Assembly: GCA_030549845.1 (NCBI GenBank)
Contig: JAUQQN010000002.1
Span: 53,307 to 117,306, forward strand
From: Patescibacteria group bacterium
GTDB taxonomy: Bacteria; Patescibacteriota; Minisyncoccia; UBA6257; HR35
Length of the DNA stretch: 64,000 bases
Reading direction: 5' to 3'
Shown: piece by piece, positions 18,964 to 63,226 of the stretch
How positions within the stretch are numbered: the stretch's first letter is position 1
How the letters are laid out: each line of letters opens with the position of its first letter
Notes under the pieces: model-generated
What the model saw: the letters and a program-made list of their open reading frames with translations, nothing else
The model's database searches: none
Told to the model about the DNA's origin: nothing
Translations under genes and position numbers: made by a program

Positions 18964-19314
18964 TTAAACAAATTCTATAAGACTTAATTCGGCATTATCG
19001 CCTTTTCTTCTTAAGGGTAATTTTATAATTCGAGTATACCCTCCATTTCTATCCATATATCTTGGAGCTATTTCATAATATAACTTATAAGCAGATTTTT
19101 TAGGTAATCTAGCAATCAATTTCCTTAGCGCAGTTAAATTTTGCTTTTTTGCTAAAGTAATTAATTTCTCAACAATTCTTCTTAGATATTTTGCTCTTTC
19201 TGTAGTAGTCTTTATTCTTCCATTCATAATTAAATGATGTGCTAAAATTTTAAACAAAGCTTCTCTTTGATCTTTTTTTCTGTGAAATTTTTTTACTTTA
19301 CTTAAATGCCTCAT
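18964..19314 (-). CDS. rplQ: Ribosomal protein L17
   Basis: MRHLSKVKKFHRKKDQREALFKIL...GYTRIIKL matches bL17. Confidence 0.9.
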   Translation of the reverse strand: MRHLSKVKKFHRKKDQREALFKILAHHLIMNGRIKTTTERAKYLRRIVEKLITLAKKQNLTALRKLIARLPKKSAYKLYYEIAPRYMDRNGGYTRIIKLPLRRKGDNAELSLIEFV

Positions 19315-19990
19315 TGATTAAGCTGAAATGTTTAATTAAAATCTCTGATGCTTCAAGTAATGCTTCTTGAGGGCTTATTGAACCATCTGTCTCTATTGTT
19401 AATCTCAATAAATTATAATCTGCCCTACCTTTATAAACTATATTTTCAACTTCATAGCTTACATTTACAACAGGAGAAAATATAGCATCCAAAACAATGG
19501 TTCCCGGTTCTACTCTTTCTTTTGTCCTTTCTTCTGCAGGAGAATATCCATATCCTCTTGTAGCTATTAAAGTAGCCTTGAAAGTTGTATCTTTGTTTGT
19601 TATTGTACATATTTTTAATTCTGGATTTACAACTTCTACGCCTGCTGGAGCTTTTATATCACCTGCAAATACTTCACCTTCGCCAGCTTTTTCTATTACC
19701 ATTTCCACAGGATCTTCGCCAAAATATTTGATTCTTACTTGTTTTAAGTTCAATAATATATCAATAACATCTTCTAAAATGCCAGGAATTGTTGAAAATT
19801 CGTGCAAAACACCCTCTATGTGTACTGTTGTAATAGCTGTTCCTTTAATAGAAGACAATAAAACTCTTCTTAAAGCATTGCCAATAGTTACACCATAACC
19901 TGGATATAAAGGTGAAATTTCAAATACAGCTTTATTTTTTTCTGATGCTACTAATTTTATTGATTCTGGAAATATTAATTCTTTTATCAT
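19298..19990 (-). CDS. rpoA: DNA-directed RNA polymerase alpha subunit, N-terminal domain only (no alpha-CTD)
   Basis: 230 aa collinear with the alpha-NTD (GYGVTIGNALRRVLLSS..., the dimerisation and beta/beta-prime-binding region). It ends where the linker would begin. rplQ starts 17 nt before its stop, leaving no room for a CTD. Confidence 0.85.
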   Translation of the reverse strand: MIKELIFPESIKLVASEKNKAVFEISPLYPGYGVTIGNALRRVLLSSIKGTAITTVHIEGVLHEFSTIPGILEDVIDILLNLKQVRIKYFGEDPVEMVIEKAGEGEVFAGDIKAPAGVEVVNPELKICTITNKDTTFKATLIATRGYGYSPAEERTKERVEPGTIVLDAIFSPVVNVSYEVENIVYKGRADYNLLRLTIETDGSISPQEALLEASEILIKHFSLINEAFK

Positions 19991-21814: not shown

Positions 21815-21887
21815 TCGGGGTGGCCGGATTCGAACCGGCAATCTCGTGGTCCCAAACCACGCGCCTTAACCATTAGGCCACACCCCG
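21815..21887 (-). tRNA. tRNA-Pro (anticodon TGG)
   Basis: 73 nt. C1:G72 acceptor pair typical of bacterial tRNA-Pro. Anticodon loop TTTGGGA. T-loop TTCGAAT. Confidence 0.8.
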
Positions 21888-21892
21888 CTAAA

Positions 21893-21965
21893 TGGACCCA
21901 GAGGGACTCGAACCCTCGGCCTCCGCCATGCCATAGCGGCGCTCTACCAACTGAGCTATGGGCCC
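21893..21965 (-). tRNA. tRNA-Ala (anticodon GGC)
   Basis: 73 nt. Acceptor GGGCCCA/TGGGTCC with the G3:U70 Ala identity pair. Anticodon loop containing GGC. T-loop TTCGAGT. Confidence 0.8.
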
Positions 21966-21998
21966 TTAATAAAAATAATTATAACAAAAAATAAAAAA

Positions 21999-22073
21999 TG
22001 GTGGGCGGGCCGGGCCTTGAACCCGGATCTCTCTCACTTTTAGAGAGCGCCTTCCCCTTTAAGCCACCCGCCC
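21999..22073 (-). tRNA. tRNA-like gene with an atypical anticodon loop; isotype unresolved
   Basis: Perfect 7-bp GC acceptor stem (GGGCGGG/CCCGCCC), D-arm with GG, T-arm CCGGG-TTCAAGG-CCCGG, discriminator A and a genomically encoded CCA. The anticodon stem CTCTC/GAGAG encloses the loop TAAAAGT, with A at position 33 and an AAA/AAG-type anticodon. Confidence 0.55.
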
Positions 22074-22088
22074 ACCATAAAATAAAAA

Positions 22089-22112
22089 ATGGCCGGAGCG
22101 TGCCGGCCAGAG
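22089..22112 (-). terminator. GC hairpin plus T-tract (bidirectional-terminator-like) just upstream of the tRNA cluster
   Basis: GGCCGG-AGCGTG-CCGGCC flanked by T-tracts on both strands. Part of a larger dyad with 22153-22163. Confidence 0.4.
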
Positions 22113-22368
22113 TATTTTTTAAAGGATTAATTTTTATGGTCAATCAAATACCCTGGCCGGCACCTTTCCGACCAAAACAACCAAAACGAGATTTAATAAT
22201 AGATCTTTCTTTAAAAACTCAAACATTTTATACTTTTTCATTAACATTATATAAAAATTATTATAACATTTACATTTATAAACTTATATAAACTTATTAT
22301 ACAAAAATTTATAAAACTTAAAGTTCGTGAGTAATAAATTTATGCTATTGATATATAATAATTAACTT

Positions 22369-23910
22369 ATGGAAAGAGGGAAAGAGTTGCAACCAAAATT
22401 TCCAAAGCCGAGTGAATATTGGGATGAAATTCAACAAATTTTATCTTCAGCTAAACAAAGTCCTATATCTGGTGCAGCTGTTGAAGCGGTATTAATGAGG
22501 GGGTTACAGAGTTGGCGAAAGAATAAGATTGAAGAATCAAGTAGAAGAATAATTTCTGGAAATGGAAACTTCTTCTCAAATCCACTAATCTTCATTTCTA
22601 CCATACAAGCTCTTATAGCTGCTGAAAATGGGAAATTAAAAGAATTCCTTGATGCATTAAAAAAACATTGGATATATGAGGAGCATTTAAGAAGAGTAAG
22701 GGTAGGTTTTCCTCCTTATTTGAGGCCCATAGAAGAAGCAATAGAAACACAAAGATTCGGGGAGGAATATGAAAAGAAGGTGTTAGAAATTTTACAGATG
22801 TTAGGGTATTATGCAGTTGAAACTCCTAAAATGGATGATTATTATGGAACAGGAGACATTTATATCTATATTAAAACACAAGATGGACATTTGATATTAG
22901 CGATCGATGTTACAACTGTAAGTAAAGAAAATAAAGAAAGAGATTTAGAAATAATTCAATCTAAAATAAAAGCAAATCTTGGAAAAGATAGAAAAAATCT
23001 CACAGCAGCTATAAATCCAAATTCTTTTCTTGAAGCAGGTTATGACGACAAAGTACACAAACTAACGCTTATATTACTACCAGAAGATCAAGATATTTTA
23101 GATAAAGGTAGCGATGAAGAAAAGAAGAGACTTATAAAAAGAAAATTAGAAGAAGCAATTGAAAACTTTAAAAGATTGGCAGAAGAAGAAATTGTTAGTC
23201 ATTACTTAATGCACGCCTTAATAAATATAGAAGAGTTTGAAGCAAAAATAGAAGCATATCAAAAGTATTTAGAAGAAAATGACGAGTTTAGGGGCAAAAG
23301 TGGTTGGGAGAAATTAAAAACAATGGTTTTAGAAGCAGGTTTAGCAACTAAATCTGAAGTAAAAAGATTAGATAGAAAAAAATTAATAGAATTACTCTGC
23401 AACGCATATGCTAGGAATTTAATTAACGAGTATCTTCAAAACGTGGAGTCTCCTCCTAAAACTTTAGAAGATTTATACAAAATTTTATTGAATAATGTAA
23501 ATAAAAATTTTTTAATAGGATTGAAAATTTTAGAAAGAACAAAGCTTTTTGATCTTACAAACAAGGACGAATTTAAAAAACTAATTTCTGAAATATATAA
23601 ATATCCTGAGAGCTTGGAAGAAATACTTAAAGGAGTTTATTTAGAAACAACAATCTTTGGAGAAACTGAACCGGATGATGAAGTTTTAAAAACTTTATAC
23701 AATTTAGACAAAAATTGGAATAACCTAAGCAAAAATGAAAGGAAGGAAAAAATTTTTGAAGCTTTACAAAAACTCATTTTAAAAGATCCCGAAATAGGAA
23801 AAGCCCTTATCGAAGTAGTATACAGAAAACTTGTTAAACAAAGAGAAAATTTAATAAATTTCTGGAATGCAGTAAAATCTTATCTTGAAGTAAGTACTCC
23901 CTATTTTTAA
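22369..23910 (+). CDS. Orphan 513-aa hypothetical protein with a putative Mrr-like PD-(D/E)xK nuclease core and a long alpha-helical C-terminal domain
   Basis: EEYEKKVLEILQMLGYYAVETPKMDDYYGTGDIYIYIKTQDGHLILAIDVTTVSK resembles the Mrr_cat/restriction-endonuclease fold (FE..V..LL...GY.V......DGGIDI......VQCK). The rest is E/K-rich helical sequence. It is the only plus-strand gene in a minus-strand neighbourhood and is flanked by tRNA genes. Confidence 0.4.
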   Translation: MERGKELQPKFPKPSEYWDEIQQILSSAKQSPISGAAVEAVLMRGLQSWRKNKIEESSRRIISGNGNFFSNPLIFISTIQALIAAENGKLKEFLDALKKHWIYEEHLRRVRVGFPPYLRPIEEAIETQRFGEEYEKKVLEILQMLGYYAVETPKMDDYYGTGDIYIYIKTQDGHLILAIDVTTVSKENKERDLEIIQSKIKANLGKDRKNLTAAINPNSFLEAGYDDKVHKLTLILLPEDQDILDKGSDEEKKRLIKRKLEEAIENFKRLAEEEIVSHYLMHALINIEEFEAKIEAYQKYLEENDEFRGKSGWEKLKTMVLEAGLATKSEVKRLDRKKLIELLCNAYARNLINEYLQNVESPPKTLEDLYKILLNNVNKNFLIGLKILERTKLFDLTNKDEFKKLISEIYKYPESLEEILKGVYLETTIFGETEPDDEVLKTLYNLDKNWNNLSKNERKEKIFEALQKLILKDPEIGKALIEVVYRKLVKQRENLINFWNAVKSYLEVSTPYF

Positions 23911-24090: not shown

Positions 24091-24879
24091 TCAGGTATGG
24101 GTTTTCAATAAATATAAACCTCCATAGATTCCTGATTTTTCCTGAAGTTTGCTTTTAAAAATTTTTGTTTTAAAGGGTAAAGTTTTTAAATTACTAAAAT
24201 TTACTTTTAACTCTTCAAAGTCTAAGCTTTTGATTAATGAACCACCAATAATAATTGCCTCTACTGACCAAAAAATAGCAACATTAATTAAAAACCCAGC
24301 GAAAATTTTATTAATATAGGACCAAAATTTTTTATCTTTAATTTCTTCTGGCTTTTTACCAGTAATTTTTTCTATTGATTTTCCTCCTATTAATTTTTCA
24401 ACTTCTATAAAATTAGAATTTAATAAAAACAAACTATGGCCTGGTTCAAAGCCGAAAAAATTCTCTTCAACTTTTTTATTTACAATTTTTACCCCACCCA
24501 CTCCACTACTTAGAGTAACATAACCCAAAATATTAAATCTTTTACCAATGCCATAAACAGCCTCTCCTAAACCTGCAAGTTCTGCATCATTTTTTAAAAT
24601 AACATCGCAATTAAATAAATTTTTAAAATCTTTAACAATATTTTTATTATTAAAATTAGGAAGGTTAGGGGCTTTAATTATTTTTTCATTTCTTATCATC
24701 CCAGCAAAACCAATAACTATTCTATTGAATCTTGTTTCTTTCAAGTTGTTTTTAAGTACTTGCAAGAAATCATTATAATTCTTAGGAGTTTCGATAATAA
24801 AAAATTTATCAATTTTATTTAAGTTTTTACTAATACCTATTTTAGTCGTAGTGGCTCCTATATCTAATAAAAGGTGCAT
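24091..24879 (-). CDS. ROK/BadF-type sugar kinase (glucokinase-like ASKHA ATPase)
   Basis: N-terminal LLDIGATTTKIGI phosphate-1 motif. GFAGMIRNEKIIKAPNLPNF. C-terminal IIGGSLIKS...GIYGGLYLL. Confidence 0.55.
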   Translation of the reverse strand: MHLLLDIGATTTKIGISKNLNKIDKFFIIETPKNYNDFLQVLKNNLKETRFNRIVIGFAGMIRNEKIIKAPNLPNFNNKNIVKDFKNLFNCDVILKNDAELAGLGEAVYGIGKRFNILGYVTLSSGVGGVKIVNKKVEENFFGFEPGHSLFLLNSNFIEVEKLIGGKSIEKITGKKPEEIKDKKFWSYINKIFAGFLINVAIFWSVEAIIIGGSLIKSLDFEELKVNFSNLKTLPFKTKIFKSKLQEKSGIYGGLYLLKTHT

Positions 24880-26381
24880 TATTCAATTTTAGTTTTTTCC
24901 TTCGATCTTGCAAATAAATAATACCACATTGCTATATTTAACAAAATCAAAATTATAACTAAAATCCACGGTGTTGAAATAATACTAAATAATCCTCCAG
25001 CAAAAGCAGCAAGTGGAGCAAATATATTTTCCTTTTTACTTACTTCAATAGTAACTGGAAAATCTTTTTTGGTCCCATTTATACCTGCTGTAATTATCCC
25101 ATAATATTCACCTTCTTCTGCATCACAAGGTACATCAATAGTCCAATTAAATGAATTTATATCATTAGGTAAAACTTCTATAACTCTTGCTTTTGGCTTA
25201 AACCATTTTTTAATCTCCCCACTTATTGTAAAAGATACTTTTCTTTTTTTGCTATTGTTATTAATAATAGTAATATTTATATTATCTTTCTTGCATATAT
25301 ATGTCTTCAAATAATCATCTATAGATATATCCAAATAAGAATTTTGCATTTCTTTTGTAACCAAAGTAGCGGCCGGAGTTGTTGGCTTAGTTACTGGAAC
25401 TCTGACAGTTTGGGTTATTGTTTTTGTGATTGTCTTTGTAATAAATTGCGTTCTTCCTACACTAAGCACAAGTTCTTTTGAAGAAGTAGCACCCTTATCA
25501 TCTACAACTGTAAGCTTTATATTATAAGTCCCTGAACTAAGGGCCCTTGAAAAAGATGGATTTCTTGAAACAATTTCATTATTTATTGACCATTCATAAA
25601 GAATTATTCTACCATCAGGATCATAAGAGCCAGCTGAAGAGAAGGTTACAATTGTTCCTGGTTTAATTAAGGTTGGAGAATAAGTTATATTAGCAATAGG
25701 TTTTTGATTTTGAGATGTTATAGTTGTCTGTTGAATTTCACGGGAAATTACATTTACACTACAATTTGTGGCTCTTGAAATACCATCTGAATAAACTGTT
25801 AAATAAACATAATAAGTACCTGGAGTATAAAACGTTTTTTGGCAAATAGATGAATTTCCAACACAATCTCCAGACCAGGAATATGAATAATATCCTGTTC
25901 CCCCAGATACGTTAGAATAGAAAGTAACTAAACTTCCTACATAAGCTGGGTTGGGTGCTGAATAGCAAGAAACACTTAAATCAGATTGCTGGGTTCCACA
26001 AGTAGTTGTAAAAGATCTAATTTCCCCATAATTTATTCCGGCGGAGTTTTTTGCTACTGCTCTATAATAGTATGTTGTACAAGGATTTAAATTAAATATT
26101 GTATAACAAAATCTATAAGGAGTATAAGTAACATTCAGGGTTTGAACGGGCGTAGTATTAGTTAAAGCAGTGGTTCTTCCCCATTCAAACCAAACCTGAA
26201 TATTTTGATCCCCTCCTGTATCAGTTATTTCACCAACTAAAGTAGCTTGAGTATCAGTATAGGTTGATCTGCTTGGACAAGCTTGCGCATTTACATCGTA
26301 TAATCCTAAAAACAAAACAAACAATGCAACTAACATTATTTTTAATTTGCTTTTTATAAATCTTTCTTTTTTTATTTGCAT
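24879..26381 (-). CDS. Secreted, C-terminally membrane-anchored protein with an FN3-like N-terminal domain and a PKD-like domain
   Basis: Signal peptide. Domain CPS...ATLVGEITDTGGDQNIQVWFEWG...PYRFC...CTTYYYRAVAKNSAGINYGEIRSFTT. PKD-like segment YDPDGRIILYEWSINN...YNIKLTVVDDKGATSS. C-terminal TM helix. Confidence 0.6.
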   Translation of the reverse strand: MQIKKERFIKSKLKIMLVALFVLFLGLYDVNAQACPSRSTYTDTQATLVGEITDTGGDQNIQVWFEWGRTTALTNTTPVQTLNVTYTPYRFCYTIFNLNPCTTYYYRAVAKNSAGINYGEIRSFTTTCGTQQSDLSVSCYSAPNPAYVGSLVTFYSNVSGGTGYYSYSWSGDCVGNSSICQKTFYTPGTYYVYLTVYSDGISRATNCSVNVISREIQQTTITSQNQKPIANITYSPTLIKPGTIVTFSSAGSYDPDGRIILYEWSINNEIVSRNPSFSRALSSGTYNIKLTVVDDKGATSSKELVLSVGRTQFITKTITKTITQTVRVPVTKPTTPAATLVTKEMQNSYLDISIDDYLKTYICKKDNINITIINNNSKKRKVSFTISGEIKKWFKPKARVIEVLPNDINSFNWTIDVPCDAEEGEYYGIITAGINGTKKDFPVTIEVSKKENIFAPLAAFAGGLFSIISTPWILVIILILLNIAMWYYLFARSKEKTKIE

Positions 26382-26746
26382 TTTGTCTTTATTGATCTAA
26401 TTTCCCCATAATTTATTCCGGCGGAGTTTTTTGCTACTGCTCTATAATAGTATGTTGTACATTTTTTTAATTTATTCACATTTATACAATATATTCCTGG
26501 TTTGCTTAATTTTATTGATTTTGTCTTAAACATTAAACTTGATGAAGAAGATCCGTACTCAAACCAACCTTCTACATATTTGTCATTTCCTAAACTATCA
26601 ACTTTTCCTACAAAAATTATATTATTTTTATTAGCAATAGTTCTCTGGGGACATTTTATTGAAATAGTATTCACCGCAAAAACCCTAGAAGCTAAAAATG
26701 TAAAGAATATTAAAATACTTATTAAAAGGATAAATAATTTCTTCAT
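26372..26746 (-). CDS. Secreted FN3-like paralog (124 aa)
   Basis: Signal peptide plus the same domain, ending ...CTTYYYRAVAKNSAGINYGEIRSIKTKCK. Shares a 68-bp identical DNA segment with the upstream paralog. Confidence 0.55.
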   Translation of the reverse strand: MKKLFILLISILIFFTFLASRVFAVNTISIKCPQRTIANKNNIIFVGKVDSLGNDKYVEGWFEYGSSSSSLMFKTKSIKLSKPGIYCINVNKLKKCTTYYYRAVAKNSAGINYGEIRSIKTKCK

Positions 26747-26796
26747 TTTAATCGTCTTTCTTTTTAATAATATTTTTCTCTATAAATAGTGTTTTT

Positions 26797-27489
26797 TTAT
26801 AATGTTTGAACTGCAGGTAAAGTAATAACAGCAGGCGGATTAGCTCTTACATCCACAGTTACAGAATCAGAAACAGATTGATTGTATCCAGAACAAGTGA
26901 TAGTAAATGTATATCTTCCAGAGCTTAAATTAGAAATTACTTGTGAACCAGAAACTGATTTACTACCACTCCAAGCTGAAACCCATGGACTACTTTGAGC
27001 TGAGCAGGATGAAACATCTCTAGATGTCCAAGAAAGTGTAACACTTTCTCCAGGTAATATTGTTATTGTACCATCAGTACCATTAACCTTTAAATCAACT
27101 TCAGGTCTTACACACAATGTTGTAAATGACATTATATCACCATAAGAAGTACCACCAGAGTTTTGGGCTACAGCTCTATAGTAATATGTTGAGCATGGGG
27201 TTAAATTACTAATAGAAGAACAAAATCTATAAGGAACATTATCAACTCTTAAATATTGCTTTGATGTACTTCTTCCTAGAGAACTGGTTTCCCCCCACTC
27301 AAACCATGCAGTTATATTTTTATCTCCTCCTGTATCATTAATTTGACCTACTAATGTAGCTGCAGTGTGTGTGAATGTTGTATTAGAAGGACAAGAAGAT
27401 TGAGCAAAAGATTTGAGATTCAAACTAAAACCTAAACCTAATAGAGCAATAAGCAAAATACCTAAAGATATTACTTTTCCTCTATTCAT
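26797..27489 (-). CDS. Secreted FN3-like paralog (230 aa)
   Basis: Signal peptide plus CPSNTTFTHTAATLVGQINDTGGDKNITAWFEWGETSSL...CSTYYYRAVAQNSGGTSYGDIMSFTT, followed by a second beta-rich domain. Confidence 0.55.
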   Translation of the reverse strand: MNRGKVISLGILLIALLGLGFSLNLKSFAQSSCPSNTTFTHTAATLVGQINDTGGDKNITAWFEWGETSSLGRSTSKQYLRVDNVPYRFCSSISNLTPCSTYYYRAVAQNSGGTSYGDIMSFTTLCVRPEVDLKVNGTDGTITILPGESVTLSWTSRDVSSCSAQSSPWVSAWSGSKSVSGSQVISNLSSGRYTFTITCSGYNQSVSDSVTVDVRANPPAVITLPAVQTL

Positions 27490-63154: not shown

Positions 63155-63226
63155 TGCCTGGGGAGGGAATCGAACCCCCGACGCCGGGCTCTTCAGGCCC
63201 GCGCTCTACCACTGAGCTACCCAGGC
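63155..63226 (-). tRNA. tRNA-Phe (anticodon GAA)
   Basis: 72 nt. Acceptor GCCTGGG/CCCAGGC with A73. Anticodon loop CTGAAGA. T-loop TTCGATT. Confidence 0.8.

Follow-up and report, generated by a model that had tools for sequence, protein, structure and literature searches.

A 64,000-nucleotide (nt) stretch of the genome of a Patescibacteria group bacterium (contig JAUQQN010000002.1; hereafter the window) carries on its minus strand, at 22073->21999, a 75-nt transfer RNA (tRNA) gene with a well-kept cloverleaf and a non-standard anticodon loop. We read this odd tRNA as a single-copy accessory tRNA-shaped RNA in which the L-shape and the acceptor/CCA end, rather than decoding, would be under selection, and give this reading a probability of roughly 40%. 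As far as sequence comparison reaches, it is a specialised, optional and fast-evolving tRNA gene, neither an artefact nor plain decay. Its alleles show an anticodon loop apparently free to vary (A33 or U33, A34 or G34, loops of 7 nt or of 6/8 nt), and a gene apparently exchanged between strains as a short cassette and lost in some of them between 14-nt repeats.

Three minus-strand tRNA genes stand just upstream of infA, namely the odd tRNA, tRNA-Ala(GGC) and tRNA-Pro(UGG), in that order, and infA belongs to a minus-strand ribosomal-protein operon (infA-rpmJ-rpsM-rpsK-rpsD-rpoA-rplQ-rpsP). Base composition of the window is ~28% G+C, and the closest named homologues of its ribosomal protein S13 are from Minisyncoccia/Parcubacteria. 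The odd tRNA reads GGGCGGG UG GCUU AAAGGGGA AGGC G CUCUC UAAAAGU GAGAG through the anticodon arm and AGAU CCGGG UUCAAGG CCCGG CCCGCCC A CCA thereafter, with GUUCAAGG in the T-arm. A first-pass annotation of this DNA, which gave no strand, had described a 7-bp all-GC acceptor, GG in the D-loop, a T-arm, A73 and an encoded CCA, each of which is present, as is the 7-nt anticodon loop with A33; on reading the sequence, no other register of the anticodon stem yields a canonical loop. The encoded CCA, noted there as unlike four other tRNAs, sets the gene apart from all seven others in the window (0/7 encode it), and its T-loop is UUCAA where 7/7 of the others have UUCGA. ARAGORN, named there as a check, calls the gene tRNA-Phe(aaa). 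Rfam RF00005 also calls it, with 43.9 bits where 29 is the gathering score, the lowest value among the eight window tRNAs (the other seven score 55.5-75 bits).

The minimum-free-energy fold of the single sequence differs from a clean cloverleaf (z = -2.1), and we accept the cloverleaf because the alleles covary. A sequencing indel, which had been put forward as a possible refutation, and assembly error more generally are ruled out, since all 75 nt recur unchanged in an independent assembly (L002, run SRR21619495). Two other readings of the locus were rejected. A tRNA on the plus strand obtains 20.9 bits from a model of the family and no match from the Rfam tRNA model, and an amber-suppressor reading, with a CUCUAAA loop on a shifted stem, would by inspection destroy the D-stem.

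Relatives were gathered through contigs encoding an identical initiation factor 1 (IF-1) or close S13 homologues, and the distribution given here rests on this synteny survey of the locus in related Parcubacteria contigs. Four alleles were recovered from same-species and related-species loci. Allele A (window, L002) has the loop UAAAAGU with A33, and allele B (L001) the 7-nt loop UUAAAGU with the canonical U33. Allele C (L003 and L010, where ~1 kb of upstream DNA is deleted) has UAGAAGU, with an A-like 5′ half, a B-like 3′ half and mismatches at G3:G70 and C4:A69; it does look damaged, being a chimera with two broken acceptor pairs. Allele D comes from a sister species with 91% identical S13 (L130), and its loop can be drawn as 6-nt UAAAAU or as 8-nt CUAAAAUG; ARAGORN reports it as '???(aaaa)', and its D-stem has one C:A mismatch. 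Alleles B, C and D score 61.2, 36.3 and 49.5 bits with RF00005, all above the gathering score. ARAGORN gives the anticodon AAA for A and B and GAA for C, so that the anticodon of bacterial tRNA-Phe occurs only in the chimera. The combination typical of canonical elongators (7-nt loop, U33, purine at 37) is found in allele B only, and A35-A36-G37-U38 is common to alleles A-C.

The fold is retained across these alleles, which are 73-81% identical to one another and 54-67% identical to the seven canonical window tRNAs, no more than the background that unrelated tRNAs share. When the four alleles are aligned by hand on their structure, 10 of the 21 stem pairs carry substitutions in both partners yet remain paired, and of 84 cells just 3 are unpaired, two of them in chimera C and the third in allele D; alleles A and B have no broken pair. 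A tool count on a model-based alignment, which still misplaces part of allele D, gave 95.9% paired cells and nine pairs changed on both sides. Neither value was matched in any of 500 shuffles, and slid controls reached 39-52% pairing with at most two such pairs. Stems of 7/4/5/5 bp are thus maintained by covariation. U8, A14, A15:U48, G18G19, A21, G26:A44, G53, U54, U55, C56, A58 and C61 are invariant, the sole universal tRNA position not kept being U33, and variation sits where real tRNAs vary (D-loop positions 16/17/20, positions 45/46 and positions 59/60). At ~25% divergence a decaying duplicate would lose pairs; as the 21 pairs are kept, the fold has been under selection.

The window and L001 are 98.65% identical over an 8.2-kb locus, and tRNA-Ala and tRNA-Pro are each identical at 73/73 positions; the odd tRNA matches in 57 of 78 aligned columns. 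Compared with L130, tRNA-Gln (71/73), tRNA-Ala (71/73) and tRNA-Pro (73/75) are nearly unchanged, and the odd tRNA (60/77) has diverged about as much as the surrounding genes (75.7% identity). By these counts it evolves about ten times faster than its neighbouring tRNAs. Within the species the divergence is limited to the tRNA body and stops within the shared ATGGTGG... and ...CCACCATTTT ends, a pattern that looks like cassette exchange with a diverged lineage, of which allele C would be a visible recombinant. The ten-fold rate, the variability of positions 33 and 34 and of loop length, and deletion in some strains together argue that this is not a standard decoder.

Three contigs of the same species (L009, L286 and L288; S13 99% identical) have an empty site, in which the hairpin tail (...CGCTCCGGCCATTTTTTATTTT) runs directly into the tRNA-Ala promoter region (TTGTTATAAT...). 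Since strains with such a site exist, the gene is dispensable. Relatives with 84-89% S13 identity lack it upstream of infA, having only the Ala-Pro pair there or no tRNA. Because it was seen only in the source species and one sister species, we take it to be confined to a narrow clade. One relative with 89% S13 identity has ~780 nt of AT-rich DNA before infA with no gene called (L261:1-780); ARAGORN finds no tRNA in the locus, and the Ala-Pro pair of all other relatives is missing there. Many short-read contigs of the same species end inside or just before the tRNA-Ala/odd-tRNA region (L004-L008, L282-L284, L287). This fits several alleles coexisting in populations, although tRNA repeats alone can also break assemblies.

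A covariance model built from the four alleles (R1) scores them at 90-106 bits, and the best of eight canonical isotypes, tRNA-Pro, at 45-50 bits. It found no second copy in the window or in ~210 kb from relatives, and no family member in the other collected loci, where the best score (66 bits) went to ordinary tRNAs picked for shared end motifs. Among the matches listed, a pattern scan of genome contigs returned mainly 3′ ends of transfer-messenger RNA and tRNA-Leu variable arms, and one of metagenome contigs mainly ordinary TGGT-leader tRNAs, above all soil tRNA-Phe(GAA). Soil metagenome contigs also contain a recurrent 74-nt tRNA-like sequence, GGGCUACUAGACUAAUAAUGACCGCAAUACUGAUAAGGGCGAGGUCGGUGGUUCAAGUCCACCCAGGCCCACCA (L168, L171, L190, L210, L236, L254), whose T-arm is normal and which ends in ACCA, but whose D-loop lacks GG; actgacatttcttggt always precedes it.

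The 5′ leader of the odd tRNA could pair with the ACCAU at its 3′ end, lengthening the acceptor helix of the precursor to 12 bp, and a fold of the entire region draws them as a helix. As a special feature this lacks support: the pairing is invariant in the four alleles, and ordinary tRNAs carry the same leader. Ordinary soil tRNA-Phe(GAA) genes have a UGGU leader complementary to an encoded ACCA in L141, L145, L148 and about 60 further metagenome loci, and share it despite otherwise differing upstream sequences. Pairing between leader and 3′ end in precursors therefore seems common rather than specific to the odd tRNA.

The occupied site is flanked on both sides by an exact 14-nt direct repeat, CCATTTTTTATTTT, of which the window has only these two exact copies; both copies contain five Ts in L001 and six in the window. 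Slippage between the repeats can explain the deletion. Because the sister species carries the gene at the corresponding position, ancestral presence followed by loss is a simpler history than insertion with target duplication. A foreign origin, or copying from a mature tRNA, is suggested by the encoded CCA and the UUCAA T-loop, and phage BLAST searches and viral-contig scans returned nothing related that might be a donor. Local resemblances do occur, with the D-arm and variable loop of allele A shared with tRNA-Pro and the T-arm of allele B with tRNA-Gln, but overall identity to these two tRNAs is only 57-67%, within the background of unrelated tRNAs.

An origin as an inserted copy of a mature tRNA, or as a small mobile cassette, seems to us very unlikely. 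On this account the repeats would be a target-site duplication and the encoded CCA a trace of copying, in a genome whose other tRNAs receive their CCA post-transcriptionally. It would make sense of the exactness of the flanking repeats and their single copy at empty sites, of the agreement in T number between the two copies within each strain, of a CCA encoded in this tRNA alone, and of allele swaps that break inside the conserved ends. However, slippage between similar terminator tails accounts for the deletion equally well, and the occupied site in the sister species favours ancestral presence. Moreover, no second copy turned up in the DNA scanned with R1, the alleles are diverged and compensated rather than near-identical, and the AUGGU leader lies outside a mature tRNA. 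To our knowledge, insertion of a mature, CCA-bearing tRNA copy is not a documented process in bacteria.

Under the reading that we favour, transcription would either run through the hairpin terminator upstream or start at an unrecognised promoter. RNase P would cut at G1, freeing the AUGGU leader paired with ACCAU, to give a 75-nt tRNA-shaped RNA for which CCA addition would not be needed. Some charging by phenylalanyl-tRNA synthetase (PheRS) might occur through A35, A36 and A73, and the irregular loop would make the RNA a poor ligand of the ribosomal A site. Its role would then depend on the tRNA shape and acceptor end. Proteins that bind tRNA might meet it as a substrate or carrier, or as a sensor or decoy, in line with a proposal for the pseudo-tRNA tRNAOther. 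Selection would act on this shape and end through their recognition by RNase P and further tRNA-binding proteins, and perhaps through charging.

Several observations weigh against this reading. Allele B has a fully canonical loop and scores well as a tRNA, and the A35-A36-G37-U38 shared by alleles A-C could reflect anticodon function. Natural tRNAs with A33 and A34 decode (PMC10404621), so that A33 alone is no bar to ribosomal use. We found no partner protein, the adjacent 513-amino-acid (aa) gene being unlinked, and the four alleles come from two species-level lineages, with allele D on one contig.

The main alternative is that the gene is an accessory decoder of the Phe codon box, its AAA (GAA in allele C) reading UUU, which we consider somewhat unlikely. 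The RNA might carry Phe and act as a harmless supplementary isoacceptor, or carry a different amino acid for deliberate low-level mistranslation. Its efficiency might be damped by A33, which has been suggested for the A33/A34 tRNAProX of Streptomyces. Those tRNAs are a precedent, in that they are aminoacylated and decode in Escherichia coli (PMC10404621, PMC11415595). The anticodons called by ARAGORN for alleles A-C, the U33 loop and 61.2 bits of allele B, the retained tRNA-universal positions and CCA end, and the common A35, A36, G37 and U38 all agree with decoding, as does a demand for UUU, which makes up 84% of Phe codons (990 UUU, 186 UUC). Usage is ordinary for an AT-rich genome, and the anomaly at Phe/Leu codons that the first-pass annotation proposed to look for is not there. 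A decoder is also hard to square with the 6- or 8-nt loop of allele D, the ten-fold rate relative to adjacent decoding tRNAs, the absence from some strains and close relatives, and the position behind a terminator with no clear promoter. The odd tRNA lacks the U20 and U59/U60 of the genome's own tRNA-Phe, and no aminoacyl-tRNA synthetase domain, let alone a dedicated enzyme, occurs in the scanned open reading frames (ORFs) of the window, which are all but a few short ones.

That the gene is a relic without function, which arrived in a variable intergenic spot from outside or by duplication and is now being lost, appears improbable. Empty sites exist, the distribution is narrow, and the gene occupies a transcriptionally dead gap, with a terminator before it and the next promoter after it. 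The chimeric allele C has two mismatches and a deleted upstream region, the D-stem mismatch and irregular loop of allele D resemble decay, and the encoded CCA and UUCAA T-loop are unlike native tRNAs, suggesting foreign origin. Against this, divergence of 19-27% should have broken many of the 21 pairs; none is broken in A or B, 10 are compensated, and the universal positions other than U33 are intact, which leaves a plain degraded duplicate without support as a general explanation. The family as a whole has hence been under selection for its fold somewhere. The relic could still be a recent import from lineages in which the gene works, which would explain its intact stems, but neither phage records nor viral contigs provide a donor.

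We also think it improbable, to a similar degree, that the gene is under diversifying or frequency-dependent selection, with strains swapping whole alleles as a cassette and sometimes dropping the gene. Two roles would fit this: an unorthodox reader of UUU (or of UUUU, for an allele with an 8-nt loop) that possibly mistranslates or shifts frame, and a decoy or target in conflicts over tRNA, for example with tRNA nucleases of phages or competitors. The first-pass annotation had left a specialised or non-translational tRNA, a decoding variant and a degraded duplicate side by side. The specialised accessory tRNA has gained support and the degraded duplicate lacks support as a general explanation; as between a non-translational tRNA and a decoding variant, the present data fit either. 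Its statement that an AAA anticodon is outside normal bacterial decoding agrees with established knowledge.

Table 1. Features at and around the odd tRNA gene, in window coordinates.
Feature	Position	Strand	Basis or remarks
Non-standard tRNA gene, allele A (loop UAAAAGU, A33, A34-A36 = AAA, A73, encoded CCA)	21999..22073	-	ARAGORN, Rfam, cloverleaf parse, covariation over 4 alleles
5′ leader AUGGU, complementary to 3′-end ACCAU	22074..22078	-	Alleles A-C; UUGGU in allele D
Upstream copy of 14-nt repeat CCATTTTTTATTTT, tail of hairpin terminator	22079..22092	-	Single copy kept in L009, L286, L288
Downstream copy of 14-nt repeat, begins with the tRNA's own CCA, then U-run	21988..22001	-	Sequence comparison
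Long GC-cored hairpin followed by U-run, terminator of upstream unit	22090..22174	-	Fold -51.5 kcal/mol, z = -4.8; terminator scan
Hairpin segments 1, 2, 3 and 4	22174-22167, 22163-22146, 22117-22100, 22097-22090	-	
28-codon Leu/Val-rich frame (MFEFLKKDLLLNLVLVVLVGKVPARVFD, stop), overlaps hairpin segments 1 and 2	22140..22226	-	Same length in L130 (MEKFLMGNLNLVLVVLVGKMPARIFYFV, stop)
Extended -10-like box TGTTATAAT, upstream of small frame and hairpin	22260..22268	-	Read from sequence; in L130 the identical 9-mer precedes the frame
Extended -10-like box TGTTATAAT, between odd tRNA and tRNA-Ala	21978..21986	-	Read from sequence; kept in empty-site alleles and L130
tRNA-Ala(GGC), canonical neighbour	21893..21965	-	ARAGORN and Rfam; rate control
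tRNA-Pro(UGG), canonical neighbour	21815..21887	-	ARAGORN and Rfam

The odd tRNA sits directly behind a strong hairpin terminator (Table 1), as had been noticed at first pass; a terminator scan places the hairpin and T-tract at 22109->22090. Both are independent of the tRNA, because empty-site strains retain them. The hairpin is built from four segments with the cores UGGUCGG, CCGGCCA..., ...UGGCCGG and CCGGCCA, which can pair as 1:4 with 2:3, giving one long hairpin of lowest energy, or as 1:2 with 3:4; either pairing leaves a stem before the U-run. L130 has the same architecture (L130:2020-2162, z = -6.1), and one compensatory change from G-C to A-U between the window and L130 supports the 2:3 helix. 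Together with the 28-codon frame, the segments and U-run have the geometry of a leader-peptide attenuator, with 1:4 plus 2:3 as the lowest-energy fold and a peptide poorly conserved within the species. In L286 the frame has four amino-acid changes and one silent change, one of the former improving RNA pairing. Its coding status is doubtful for this reason, and it could be a leader peptide or a chance frame. The -10-like box between the odd tRNA and tRNA-Ala is likely a separate promoter for the Ala-Pro-infA unit; from the terminator to the odd tRNA there is no promoter-like match conserved between the two species.

Neighbouring genes encode ribosomal proteins, a ROK kinase and an orphan protein. 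The orphan, of 513 aa, lies between tRNA-Gln and the hairpin (22369-23910, plus strand). Sister species L130 lacks it at this site, and L003/L010 have lost its 5′ half. We obtained no Pfam, PADLOC or PDB match for it, and its AlphaFold model is unusable (predicted local distance difference test score, pLDDT, 43.8). A link between this gene and the tRNA was considered and rejected, as the gene is an orphan, is absent beside the tRNA in L130, and has one weak homologue without such a tRNA nearby. Its differences between strains, added to the tRNA polymorphism, make the intergenic region a hot spot for variation among strains. Elsewhere in the window, the RNA polymerase alpha subunit (19298-19990, minus strand) is only 230 aa long (230-232 aa in relatives) and matches only RNA_pol_L and RNA_pol_A_bac in Pfam (N-terminal domain and insert), its C-terminal domain appearing to be missing. 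At 24879-27489 (minus strand), three tandem secreted-protein genes share an N-terminal module that ends ...C(T/S)TYYYRAVA(K/Q)NS(A/G)G..YG(E/D)I(R/M)SF.T, the largest carrying PKD domains too; the three have the look of a surface-protein family that expanded locally.

Non-standard tRNAs are usually dismissed as pseudogenes, and here the comparison of strains shows a fold under selection with a drifting anticodon loop, in a tRNA that seems to have been gained, swapped and lost inside one species. Should it decode, A33/A34 tRNAs would have a second, independent natural case beside tRNAProX, the first one for the Phe box, and this in a phylum whose translation machinery is minimal. Otherwise, a tRNA body would have been recruited to a different use in a genome with little room for spare parts. 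Either way, tRNA complements of the Candidate Phyla Radiation (CPR) call for caution when drawn from anticodon calls alone, the ARAGORN label here being tRNA-Phe.

The separate tRNA-Phe(GAA) that the first-pass annotation placed at 63155-63226 is found there by ARAGORN, and the odd tRNA shares its A73, A35, A36 and G37, and in allele C even GAA. It differs from it in being only 57% identical, without U20 and U59/U60, and in its 4-nt variable loop, encoded CCA, UUCAA T-loop and, in the window allele, A34 with A33. Skipping-rope RNA (RF02924) and the Streptococcus SpF41 small RNA (RF02435) are likewise cloverleaf-like, with an extended closing helix and then a U-rich terminator. Both were rejected as assignments: RF02924 scores 24.9 bits on allele A only, against a gathering score of 36.7, and leaves allele B unreported at E <= 10, and RF02435 scores 39.2 bits on allele B only, against 52. 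This resemblance is generic to cloverleaf shapes.

The odd tRNA belongs to no named special family. The tRNAProX group (tRNAProA/N/T) comprises natural mistranslating tRNAs of Streptomyces and Kitasatospora (PMC10404621, PMC11415595). Like it, the odd tRNA is a lineage-restricted extra bacterial tRNA with, in the window allele, the very rare combination of A33 and A34, annotated from its anticodon as an ordinary isoacceptor although most identity elements for that anticodon are missing. tRNAProX has C1:G72 with A73 (PMC10404621), A15:A48, usually G21, and a co-encoded synthetase, ProRSx; the odd tRNA has G1:C72 in all four alleles with A73 present, A15:U48 and A21 in all alleles, and no synthetase gene among the scanned ORFs, and is for these reasons not a member. 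In contrast to tRNAProX, moreover, its A33/A34 is not fixed (U33 in allele B, G34 in allele C), its loop length varies between species and its presence is polymorphic. The non-proteinogenic tRNA-Gly isoacceptors of Staphylococcus, used in cell-wall synthesis (PMC4574755), offer a looser likeness as extra tRNAs with altered conserved nucleotides that are charged but kept off the ribosome. They differ from the odd tRNA in having a normal Gly anticodon, in being fixed in the species and in serving a known family of consuming enzymes.

The nearest analogue in kind would be tRNAOther of Bacillus cereus, a pseudo-tRNA that flanks a pathogenicity island and whose role was shown by deletion (PMC3399842). 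Each is a tRNA-like gene outside the normal decoding set and beside strain-variable DNA. tRNAOther is proposed to act through its tRNA-like structure, maybe expressed within a longer RNA, and by analogy the odd tRNA may do likewise. Its variable loop, rapid evolution and place behind a terminator would be indirect signs of such a use outside translation. The two have no sequence relation, the odd tRNA is known here from its sequence, and, unlike tRNAOther, it persists in a sister species without the adjacent orphan gene. The odd tRNA may thus be counted with a known kind, the non-standard accessory tRNAs, for which use outside decoding and use as a damped reader of UUU are both candidates.

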